DNA of 46,060 bases from the sequence record ON185589.1, one strand, 5' to 3'. Below are positions 21,705 to 39,201 of the stretch, piece after piece. The stretch is from Escherichia phage EC147. The notes beneath the pieces are model-generated. The model did no database searches, was not told where the DNA came from, and saw only the letters and a program-made list of their open reading frames with translations. The first letter of the stretch is position 1; each line of letters starts with the position of its first letter. Position numbers and translations under genes: made by a program.

Positions 21705-22766
21705 ATGAATAAGTTTATGGCGTACACCAGCGAAGAAATGAGCAACGAGCTTTATCACGATCCAGAAGCGTGGACGGCTGATTATGTTAGCGGTTCAAGC
21801 CTGGCGGAGATTTACAGCACATGCCCGGCAGCGTGGAAGTTCAAGCCGCGTGACGACAAGAGCAAGGCGCTAGTTTTTGGTACGCAGTCGCATACCAACT
21901 TTGAAAGCAAGGAGCTTTTCGAAAAAACCTATCGCCGTGCGCCAGCGCCAGAAGACTTTAAGGATCTGATAACCAGCCAAACGGCGCTTGCTGCAAAGCT
22001 GAAATCATTTGGCCTGAAAGGTACAACCGGAAAGACTTACCCCGAACTTATAAAAATGATGGTCGACTGCGGAGAAGACCTTAACGTCATGTGGTTAATC
22101 GACATGATCGCAGAAAGTCAGGCCAGGGCCGATGGGGTTCAGTTAATCGAAGCTAAAGATTACGATTCGTGCGTTGCAATGCGCCAGGTTCTGGAATCAA
22201 TACCGGAACATAACGCATGTATGAATAGCAAGACAGCACAACGTGAATTATCGTTGTTCGGTGAAATCAACGGCGTAAAAGTCAAAGTGCGATGCGATCA
22301 CGTTGACGTAACAAAGAACGTCACCGCAACGCTGATTGATGGTTACGATGAAAAAGGTCAACCGATTTGCCGCGATATTATTTATCCAGAGGCGATTGTG
22401 ATTACTGACTACAAAACAACAATGAGCGCTAATCCGGTTGAGTTTATGCGCCTGGCTTACAATCACGGCTATTATCTGAAAATGGCGTTGCAATGTGATT
22501 TATTCAGGAAAGCGTATCCAGAAGAAAAGCGACCTATAGTTGTGCGCCTGTTAGCGCAAGAGAAGAAAGAGCCTTACTTGCCGTTAGCTTTCCGCATGAA
22601 CAGCGAGCAATTGAAGATCGGGCGCATTCAGTACATGAGCGTAATTAACCAGTTTGCCATGTGCCAGCAACATGACGTTTGGCCTTCGTATTCAAACGGC
22701 GAGCCGGAGGTTTGCCTTGATACTCCTGATTGGGTGCGACGCCAGTTTAAGCAATATCTTATTTAA
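21705..22766 (+). CDS. PD-(D/E)xK family exonuclease (RecE-like)
   Basis: 353 aa; motif VRCDHVDV..ITDYKT fits a D..(D/E)xK nuclease core; first gene of the exonuclease-Erf-SSB cluster. Confidence 0.55.
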   Translation: MNKFMAYTSEEMSNELYHDPEAWTADYVSGSSLAEIYSTCPAAWKFKPRDDKSKALVFGTQSHTNFESKELFEKTYRRAPAPEDFKDLITSQTALAAKLKSFGLKGTTGKTYPELIKMMVDCGEDLNVMWLIDMIAESQARADGVQLIEAKDYDSCVAMRQVLESIPEHNACMNSKTAQRELSLFGEINGVKVKVRCDHVDVTKNVTATLIDGYDEKGQPICRDIIYPEAIVITDYKTTMSANPVEFMRLAYNHGYYLKMALQCDLFRKAYPEEKRPIVVRLLAQEKKEPYLPLAFRMNSEQLKIGRIQYMSVINQFAMCQQHDVWPSYSNGEPEVCLDTPDWVRRQFKQYLI

Positions 22767-31031: not shown

Positions 31032-31733
31032 ATGAGCAAAGAAACCGAAGTGACATTTGAACAAATAGAACGCGAAACATTCATTGGCAATGCTCTTGCT
31101 ACTGGTGGTCATTACCAGGCTGTTAAACCAAATCAATATTTCAAAGTGACTGGCAACCGCTATAACGGCAGCAATACGCCGGACGTTGTGCGCGATTTGT
31201 GGTCTACGCCGTCTGAGGTTGTCACATGGATGGAAAGCGAATACGGTGATTATGACATCGACGCGGCTGCAAGCAAAGAAAATTCTGTATGTGAAAAATT
31301 CTACAGCAAGGAAACAAATTGCTTAAAGCGTTGGTGGGGTAGTAACAAGCATATATGGCTGAATCCGCCGTACAGCAATATAACGCCTTTCGTTAAGAAA
31401 GCGATTGAGCAAATGGAGCACAATAACCAGATCGACATTCTGTTACCTTGCGACACATCTACAGGATGGTTTTATGAGGCACAACAGAAAGCAGCGGAAA
31501 TTATCTGGATCACTGGCGAAGTTTATCAGGAGGAAGGAACAGAATATTCCCGCACAGGACGCCTTGCGTTTACCTCGGCTCTTACAGGTAAACCAGTGCA
31601 GGGCAACAACAAAGGAAGCGTTATTTTCATCATGCGCGAACTTAAAGAAGGTGAGCAGCAGAAAACGCGATACGTTAAAATCAGCGACATTTGCCCTTCG
31701 GTGGCAGACCGTCGCGCACGGAAACGGAGCTAA
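31032..31733 (+). CDS. dam: DNA N6-adenine methyltransferase (phage Dam-type)
   Basis: 233 aa; catalytic NPPY motif (WLNPPYSN); overall pattern of phage Dam-type methyltransferases. Confidence 0.8.
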   Translation: MSKETEVTFEQIERETFIGNALATGGHYQAVKPNQYFKVTGNRYNGSNTPDVVRDLWSTPSEVVTWMESEYGDYDIDAAASKENSVCEKFYSKETNCLKRWWGSNKHIWLNPPYSNITPFVKKAIEQMEHNNQIDILLPCDTSTGWFYEAQQKAAEIIWITGEVYQEEGTEYSRTGRLAFTSALTGKPVQGNNKGSVIFIMRELKEGEQQKTRYVKISDICPSVADRRARKRS

Positions 31734-38059: not shown

Positions 38060-38104
38060 ATTATGCCAGGCTTTTACACCTGGCTTTTAACAAAAAGTGC
38101 TATT
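38060..38104 (-). promoter_or_regulatory. conserved element + N18 + CATAAT
   Basis: minus-strand ATAGCACTTTTTGTTAAAAG + CCAGGTGTAAAAGCCTGG + CATAAT; element TAG is the stop codon of the methyltransferase-like gene. Confidence 0.55.
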
Positions 38105-38810
38105 TTGCGTTTGCTTCAAAGACGGCGCGAGCAAAGCCGCGCGGAGTGAGGGAGCGGATCATCTTTGTGCGCGATGATTTTCCGCCAGTTTTGGCCCAGC
38201 CAGGATTATCCTTGTCGTCCTCTTTCGGAAGGATTGTTGCGCGCGGAGGAATAACAAAGCCGTTGCCAGTCCAAAGGCATGTTTTCTTAAAGTAGCGATC
38301 CCGCGCCGGAATAATATCAGGGAAGTCGGGATGTTTATCATCTTCCGGCAGATAGCCAGCGTAATCGCACGGATGGAACGTATAATCAGGCTTACGCCAT
38401 AACGTTGACAGCTTGCCTACAGGATTTTCGATCATGTAAGGAACGCCGAAATAATCAGCGATATGCGCCGCGATTCTGCAAGTGTCGGCGGCCTCATCCT
38501 GGAAAGAGGGGTTCTCAAGGCGTTTTTTGGACCAATGGCGAGATCCGCTATTTGCAAGGTCAGTGCACGGCGGAAATGCCATAATGAAATCAGGCTTACC
38601 CCAATTTTCAAGTTTTGCGGTATATTTGAATAGCTCATCAATCCACACATTAACGTAAAAAATATTATCATGGATTATGCGCACTGATTGGTAATCTCCG
38701 TGATCGGCATCATCGTAATTAAAGCAAATGCATTTATATCCAGCATCAGCCCAATCTTTAACGGCTTTACCAGATCCATCAAACAAAGAGAATATTAAAC
38801 CTTTATACAT
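38100..38810 (-). CDS. compact DNA (cytosine-5) methyltransferase-like protein
   Basis: 236 aa; motif I-like FSLFDGSG, motif IV-like FPPCTD (Pro-Cys), motif VI-like IENPVG; too short for a canonical target-recognition domain. Confidence 0.5.
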   Translation of the reverse strand: MYKGLIFSLFDGSGKAVKDWADAGYKCICFNYDDADHGDYQSVRIIHDNIFYVNVWIDELFKYTAKLENWGKPDFIMAFPPCTDLANSGSRHWSKKRLENPSFQDEAADTCRIAAHIADYFGVPYMIENPVGKLSTLWRKPDYTFHPCDYAGYLPEDDKHPDFPDIIPARDRYFKKTCLWTGNGFVIPPRATILPKEDDKDNPGWAKTGGKSSRTKMIRSLTPRGFARAVFEANAK

Positions 38811-38819
38811 TTCATCACC

Positions 38820-39011
38820 TCAAAACGGAAAGCATCGCGGGCAGTTAGGATCAAAATTGCAGCCGCAATCATTGACAATCATAGTTGGATCTGCAAATGC
38901 AGCGCCGCATTCATGATCCATATCCATTTCACCCAACGCATCATCAAGCGTCCTGATCTTATATGCAACTTCAAGCGCTGCCTCTTTATTTAATCCGGCA
39001 TCTTCAGCCAT
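38820..39011 (-). CDS. small Cys-rich protein (possible zinc-binding)
   Basis: 63 aa; HECG..DCGCNFDPNCPRC; stop lies 7 nt before the start of the methyltransferase-like gene. Confidence 0.45.
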   Translation of the reverse strand: MAEDAGLNKEAALEVAYKIRTLDDALGEMDMDHECGAAFADPTMIVNDCGCNFDPNCPRCFPF

Positions 39012-39040
39012 TTGCAGGCGCTCAAAAAATCCGTCCTAAC

Positions 39041-39154
39041 TCATTTCATAAACTCCTTGATAACAACAATAATAATAGCAAGACCAGCAGTGACAACCAA
39101 AAGACCAGCAAGGCCAATCATCACTCCAAATAAAATATCAAGAAATTTCATCAT
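39041..39154 (-). CDS. possible 37-aa hydrophobic membrane peptide
   Basis: MMKFLDILFGVMIGLAGLLVVTAGLAIIIVVIKEFMK; RBS AAGGTGA 6 nt upstream; below ORF-track cutoff. Confidence 0.4.
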   Translation of the reverse strand: MMKFLDILFGVMIGLAGLLVVTAGLAIIIVVIKEFMK

Positions 39155-39201
39155 TATTATCACCTTTATTTAAAGGGAGGCGAAAACCTCCCGTTCATTA
39201 A

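Follow-up and report, generated by a model that had tools for sequence, protein, structure and literature searches.

A probable Dcm-like C5-cytosine DNA methyltransferase and its small acidic neighbour in Escherichia phage EC147

A gene of 236 codons in Escherichia phage EC147 very probably encodes an orphan 'Dcm-like' C5-cytosine DNA methyltransferase of the kind that is standard in T1-like phages and in many enterobacterial phages. It lies directly downstream of a small acidic, Cys-rich open reading frame (ORF), within a stretch of 46,060 nucleotides (ON185589.1; hereafter 'the window') that also contains a gene for a Dam-type methyltransferase. A first-pass annotation, made from the sequence alone, had drawn attention to this arrangement. 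Its observation is accurate save for small corrections, and what it describes is ordinary and has been described previously. The enzyme, its pairing with Dam and its short variable region are all already known. Our analysis adds little, since the orthologous gene is annotated as "Dcm-like C5 cytosine methyltransferase" in records of the BASEL collection, and since the enzyme of a phage of the same genus has been characterised as the trigger of retron Ec86/Eco1. The presence of Dam together with a C5-methyltransferase in Drexlerviridae is likewise already in the literature.

Gene layout and methyltransferase family

Nucleotide comparison showed ~94% identity between the window and the Hanrivervirus phages PGN590, JakobBernoulli, herni and pSf-1. 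This similarity marks the window as a T1-like phage of the Hanrivervirus type, within the Drexlerviridae. The following features of the window are relevant to the analysis:

31032..31733, plus strand: Dam-type N6-adenine DNA methyltransferase (Pfam PF05869, E 1e-60)
38100..38810, minus strand: gene for the probable compact Dcm-like C5-cytosine DNA methyltransferase, 236 aa plus stop, assigned from its ORF and motifs
38816..38821, minus strand: Shine-Dalgarno sequence GAGGTG of the methyltransferase gene, read from the sequence; it overlaps the TGA (38820-38822) of the small ORF upstream
38820..39011, minus strand: acidic Cys-rich ORF of 63 aa (phrog_9323), what is left open of a Drexlerviridae-specific gene usually 74 aa long
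39012..39044, minus strand: original 5' end of the small gene, with its ATG at 39044-39042 and a TAG nonsense codon at 39038-39036
39041..39163, minus strand: hydrophobic ORF of 40 aa, located further upstream in the same leftward run of closely spaced genes

The ORFs of 236 and 63 aa that had been reported earlier were thus both recovered on the minus strand, and the assignment of a Dam gene starting at 31032 was borne out by its Pfam match. The distance between the two neighbouring ORFs required a correction. The junction reads TGAGGTGATGAAATG, with 9 nt between the TGA of the small ORF and the ATG of the methyltransferase gene, and not 7 nt as given before. At the other end of the small gene, its normal ATG overlaps the TGA of the 40-aa ORF (ATGA). 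A PHROG search with this hydrophobic 40-aa ORF gave no match, and a scan for promoters and terminators around the small gene and the methyltransferase gene gave results no better than those for shuffled sequence.

The sequence motifs on which the first-pass annotation had relied are all present in the methyltransferase. Motif I (FSLFDGSG) spans residues 7-14, the catalytic PPC spans residues 80-82 with Cys82 as the predicted nucleophile, and the ENP motif spans residues 128-130. In an alignment of 63 homologues, each of these motifs falls in invariant columns (F10, G12, S13 and G14; P81 and C82; E128, N129 and P130). The protein matches phrog_757 ("DNA methyltransferase") with an E value of 4.2e-86, where residues 2-235 align with profile positions 13-219 of 247, and its homologues form 3,359 clusters in a 90% database. 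The strength of the profile match and the number of homologues place the motif assignment far beyond chance.

At 50% identity the homologues form 1,232 clusters, mostly of 210-260 aa. Hence, the compact size of the protein is the norm of its family and does not point to truncation. Searches with tblastn located the family in ~1,502 phage records, including Drexlerviridae, Dhillonvirus, Jersey-like and rV5-like phages, as well as coliphages of 150-165 kb, the N15-like phage phiKO2, phage 9NA, and phages of Vibrio and Arthrobacter. One database homologue of 563 aa (P0356) is a natural fusion of an N-terminal compact C5-methyltransferase-like domain with a D12-class N6-adenine methyltransferase (PF02086, residues 303-546).

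The window methyltransferase had no match over threshold in Pfam or NCBIfam, and PF00145 gave no match even at E<=1. Among the 63 homologues, 15 were matched by PF00145 at E<=0.01, over motifs I-IV only. Three homologues scored 24.7-28.5 bits on this profile, against a cut-off of 22 bits, again over motifs I-IV only.

Structure prediction was consistent with the motifs. An AlphaFold model of the methyltransferase, calculated from the alignment of 63 sequences, had a pLDDT of 88.9 and a pTM of 0.88. Its best PDB matches in Foldseek were the catalytic domains of DNMT3A and DNMT3B (E ~6e-7), and DNMT3B, M.HhaI and M.HaeIII were among its best structural matches. According to this model, the protein has the C5-methyltransferase fold. 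Searches of PDB sequences, either with the single protein or with the 63-sequence profile, yielded only sub-threshold matches to DNMT3B over motifs I-IV. Compared with the catalytic domain of DNMT3A/DNMT3B, to which it is 13-16% identical, the phage protein is shorter by ~50 residues, and no motif X can be recognised in it. The motifs, the phrog_757 family and the predicted fold all agree with the earlier designation as a C5-cytosine methyltransferase, and the enzyme of a close relative has been tested by experiment, as detailed below.

The first-pass annotation had further judged the length of the protein insufficient for a canonical target-recognition domain, and the region concerned is indeed small. 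Only ~36 residues of variable region separate the motif VIII-like strand (residues 177-182) from motif IX (RSLTPRGFARAV, residues 219-230). Motif X (GNxV) was not found by sequence in the methyltransferase, and the C-terminus lies 6 residues past motif IX. In enzymes of the Dcm/M.EcoRII type the variable region comprises roughly 130 aa (an estimate), compared with the ~36 aa of the phage enzyme.

Further comparison with the E. coli Dcm/M.EcoRII type (PF00145) suggests the same chemistry and probably the same CCWGG target. Of the conserved motifs, I, IV, VI and IX can be made out in the phage enzyme, where RSLTPRGFARAV pairs in alignment with RRLTPRECARLM, the motif IX of E. coli Dcm. The phage enzyme is, however, much shorter than E. 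coli Dcm (236 versus 472 aa) and lacks the GNSV of motif X. We also considered whether it is an orthologue of E. coli Dcm. This was rejected, as hhalign gave a probability of 1.4% with motif IV only, and the best BLASTP match had an E value of 1.5.

Methylation product, target site and retron Ec86

Experimental evidence on this type of enzyme comes from phage K42. This strain of KarlJaspers is 95.4% identical to Bas06 at the genome level and has a dcm gene of 711 bp with C82, E128, K175 and K176 as named residues (bioRxiv 10.1101/2023.08.16.553469). The window methyltransferase is identical to the KarlJaspers (Bas06) protein at 233 of 236 positions, and the three substitutions (S94A, R112K and A115S) are all conservative. 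Here identity was measured to Bas06, while the link to K42 is made through the stated genome identity, the gene length and the residue numbers. The window shares with KarlJaspers/K42 the length of 711 bp, the four residues (Cys82, Glu128, Lys175 and Lys176), the gene neighbourhood and the Shine-Dalgarno sequence. It differs in the nonsense codon of the small gene upstream, and in the three substitutions relative to Bas06.

The lesions of all four K42 escapers of retron Ec86 mapped to dcm or to the sequence just 5' of it, and two escapers carried an A in place of C 9 bp ahead of the dcm ATG (bioRxiv 10.1101/2023.08.16.553469). Mapped to the window, the changed position would correspond to a coding-strand G of the Shine-Dalgarno sequence, and we therefore read these two escapers as probable ribosome-binding-site mutants. 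When K42 Dcm was expressed alone from an arabinose promoter, it was toxic solely to cells that carried the retron. LC-MS revealed an increase of 5mC in the msDNA with wild-type K42 Dcm, and no such rise with the C82A/E128A/K175A/K176A K42 Dcm. Defence was lost once the CCTGG in the stem of the msDNA had been altered (all bioRxiv 10.1101/2023.08.16.553469; cited as published in Cell Rep 2024;43:114857).

The conserved motifs and the predicted fold suggest how the window enzyme would work. It would use S-adenosylmethionine as a cofactor and transfer the methyl group to the C5 of cytosine, with Cys82 attacking C6 of a flipped-out cytosine and Glu128 of the ENP motif helping to activate the ring. 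It would act as a single polypeptide, as shown for the K42 enzyme.

A different product had also been put forward in the first-pass annotation, namely a non-methyl pyrimidine modification. By analogy with cyanophage CmoX, this could for instance be 5-carboxymethylcytosine made from host Cx-SAM. E. coli makes Cx-SAM itself through CmoA, and the double proline of FPPC in the phage enzyme resembles the SPPC of CmoX. The marks of CmoX are, however, SPPC itself, a motif X Arg that binds the carboxylate of Cx-SAM, and usually a neighbouring phage CmoA, with 4,257 CmoA genes for 5,615 candidate CmoX genes (PMC12783734). The phage enzyme has FPPC rather than SPPC, and the defining Arg has no counterpart in a protein without motif X; its Arg224 aligns with the Arg of 'TPRE' in motif IX of E. 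coli Dcm. In addition, a tblastn search of the window with E. coli CmoA gave nothing better than E 0.8. The 5mC measured for the K42 enzyme by LC-MS, combined with this lack of a CmoA homologue in the window, makes a non-methyl product extremely unlikely.

Methylation of cytosine at C5 is the preferred reading, and the most likely target would be the inner C of CCWGG. This target is suggested by the msDNA mutations of the retron and by the resistance to EcoRII that the virion DNA of phage AAS23 shows. The AAS23 homologue of the methyltransferase (locus L120) is 60% identical to the window enzyme, and restriction digests have been reported to show that AAS23 virion DNA is both Dam- and Dcm-methylated. 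The host of the K42 study, MG1655, has a Dcm of its own, and yet the control msDNA contained little 5mC (bioRxiv 10.1101/2023.08.16.553469). Substrate or site preference may hence not be the same in the phage enzyme and host Dcm.

The earlier proposal of two DNA-modification activities holds in the sense that genes for both Dam and a C5-methyltransferase are encoded. Together, the two enzymes would pre-methylate progeny DNA and thereby shield it from restriction enzymes that such marks block. According to the BASEL paper, Drexlerviridae abundantly encode N6-adenine and C5-cytosine methyltransferases. The same paper found no simple link between these genes and restriction resistance in Drexlerviridae, and the anti-restriction benefit is therefore a putative one.

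Site avoidance in the window was assessed by comparing observed numbers of sites with those expected from a maximal-order Markov model. The putative methylation targets were not avoided, with 246 GATC sites observed versus 245 expected and 104 CCWGG sites observed versus 109 expected. Strong avoidance was seen for other palindromes, among them AAGCTT (0 observed versus 17 expected), GGATCC (0 versus 11), GGCGCC (1 versus 18), TCCGGA (1 versus 18) and CCSGG (1 versus 11, with the sole site at 21824). The composition of the window agrees with protective methylation. One might speculate that a phage with methylated CCWGG and few CCSGG sites would evade CCNGG-type (SsoII-like) enzymes entirely. 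The same methylation would be an Achilles heel, as the literature has shown that methylated CCTGG in the msDNA of retron Ec86/Eco1 switches on abortive infection.

The small acidic protein and its relation to the methyltransferase

The small protein belongs to phrog_9323, a family to which no function is assigned. It was found in ~400 phage records of ~50 kb, apparently all of the Drexlerviridae type (T1-like), and formed only 205 clusters in a database of 5.8 billion proteins, profile search included. Searches of Pfam and NCBIfam gave no significant match (best DUF3769, E 0.19). With 13 acidic and 4 basic residues, the protein has a pI of ~4. Its AF2 model (pLDDT 59, pTM 0.21) contains two short helices, the rest being coil, and the protein is predicted to be mostly disordered. 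Members of the family share the core AGLxxE..VA...L.DALG.MDMD.E and a C-terminal [FI]P[FW].

Small proteins of this family usually have a length of 74 aa, and the 63-aa ORF in the window is a remnant. Codon 3 of the gene, which is CAA or CAG in all aligned relatives, is TAG in the window. Only a restart at Met12 is left open, and the conserved Asp, Phe and Arg residues at the N-terminus are lost with it. The small gene in the window is either inactivated or restarted at Met12 to yield the 63-aa ORF. The TAG codon may also be a sequencing error.

The first-pass annotation had called the protein Cys-rich and had pointed to its 'HEC' sequence. Four Cys residues are indeed conserved in the non-Tunavirus forms, in the arrangement C-G-C-x5-C-x2-C (CxC-x5-CxxC), but the Cys of 'HEC' is not among the conserved features and is Ser in most relatives. 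Two main types of tail were distinguished among 62 loci:

Four-Cys tail (CxC-x5-CxxC), 46 of 62 loci: methyltransferase 0-16 nt downstream in 37, 98-225 nt downstream in 8, and its place taken by an HNH endonuclease gene in 1
Cys-free, very acidic tail ending in DDDDYIPW (Tunavirus, including T1-type), 14 of 62 loci: methyltransferase never adjacent

At 10 of the 14 loci with the Cys-free tail, the methyltransferase gene is located 2.3-3.4 kb upstream of the small-protein gene. These Tunavirus-type copies (L051-L059 and L061) are 53-58% identical, and their distance from the small-protein gene implies that the position of the enzyme gene has shifted within the family. At one locus (L062) no methyltransferase copy was present within the fetched flank. 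The association between the four-Cys tail and adjacency to the methyltransferase is real and comes from few independent lineages (two or three clades). In one Webervirus-like phage (L045:3205-3771), an ORF of 188 aa for a Cys-rich HNH-type endonuclease occupies the slot of the methyltransferase, and the four-Cys small protein has been kept.

We consider the small acidic protein most likely a separate, Drexlerviridae-specific early product, and not a subunit that the methyltransferase would need. The first-pass annotation had instead envisaged a Zn-ribbon DNA-binding partner. In the split C5-methyltransferases M.AquI and M.EcoHK31I, a second polypeptide is needed for activity or, as in M.AquI, bears conserved methyltransferase motifs. 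By analogy, the Cys-rich protein could be a zinc-binding subunit for DNA recognition or regulation that replaces the target-recognition domain. The phage genes resemble these systems in consisting of two adjacent small ORFs, of which one encodes a C5-methyltransferase core. They share one operon, in which the stop of the small ORF overlaps the Shine-Dalgarno sequence of the methyltransferase. The distribution of tails points in the same direction, since 37 of 46 four-Cys variants lie 0-16 nt upstream of the enzyme gene, while the Cys-free Tunavirus variant never adjoins it even where a copy is only 2.3-3.4 kb away.

Yet a two-subunit enzyme is highly improbable. The K42 enzyme, produced on its own from a plasmid, is able to methylate DNA. 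Furthermore, the enzyme family occurs in ~1,500 phage genomes and the small protein in ~400 genomes of Drexlerviridae, so that most carriers of the enzyme lack the small protein. Phages outside the Drexlerviridae have unrelated genes, which are not Cys-rich, 5' of the methyltransferase. In contrast to the split enzymes, the family alignment of the small protein contains no methyltransferase motifs. As for a zinc ribbon, the four Cys are kept in the non-Tunavirus forms and missing from the Tunavirus forms, and the AF2 model is mostly coil at low confidence, without a confident fold. The strong acidity of the protein is unlike that of a DNA binder, and the gene carries a nonsense codon in the window genome. 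Moreover, the Webervirus-like phage has retained the Cys form although an HNH gene has replaced its methyltransferase, and the correlation between Cys and adjacency is drawn from two or three clades only.

Database entries of 255-262 aa were considered as fusions of the small protein with the enzyme. This was rejected, as their N-termini are over-extended, out-of-frame read-through of the small ORF; the Henu7 annotation begins in another frame.

A role in host interaction would leave the adjacency to the methyltransferase as mere gene order. The small protein would then be an independent early peptide, the [FI]P[FW] tip of which imitates the C-terminal tail of SSB, either to recruit SSB-binding proteins or to compete for them. 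Its family has a C-terminus of DDDDYIPW in Tunavirus and of C[FI]PF(W) elsewhere, with an invariant Pro and an acidic tail, and its predicted disorder would suit a peptide of this kind. The SSB of the phage itself (23873-24325, plus strand) ends in PPMDFDDDIPF, and has the same tip as the DDDIPF hexapeptide of the E. coli SSB C-terminus (PMC5872125). We nevertheless regard SSB mimicry as unlikely. It is a matter of resemblance only, and our literature search found nothing on SSB-tail mimicry by proteins of T1-like phages. At its tip, the window variant, which ends in PRCFPF, is far less acidic than SSB. The additional Trp that closes the Webervirus forms would alter recognition of the end, and the four conserved Cys are left unexplained. 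The C-terminus of the small protein may be an SSB-tail-like linear motif, and as such it provides a lead.

Improbable too, and more so than SSB mimicry, is a scenario in which the four-Cys protein has co-evolved with the methyltransferase and modulates the enzyme in timing, specificity or effect on retron msDNA, or in which it ties the enzyme or other factors to replication forks via its SSB-like tail. If true, a methyltransferase very widespread among phages would have an accessory factor that had so far gone unrecognised.

The hairpin downstream of the methyltransferase gene

Directly after the methyltransferase stop lies a conserved element of the form 'TTGTTAAAA - hairpin - CATAAT' (38060-38093, minus strand), with a stem of GCCAGG/CCTGGC (38065-38084). 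The sequence of the stem varies across the genera of Drexlerviridae, and its pairing is kept. The stem contains CCWGG sites at the Hanrivervirus-type loci and at one further locus (L023), but not in the other genera. We considered whether the methyltransferase might regulate its own expression through a CCWGG hairpin 3' of its gene. This was rejected, as other genera keep the hairpin without the CCWGG sites. The hexamers that flank the hairpin resemble -35 and -10 boxes, but are separated by a spacer of ~22 nt.

Finally, ~20-39 records labelled 'Campylobacter jejuni phage' (MG0656xx) are near-identical to T1-like or rV5-like phages of E. coli, which makes their host labels doubtful.
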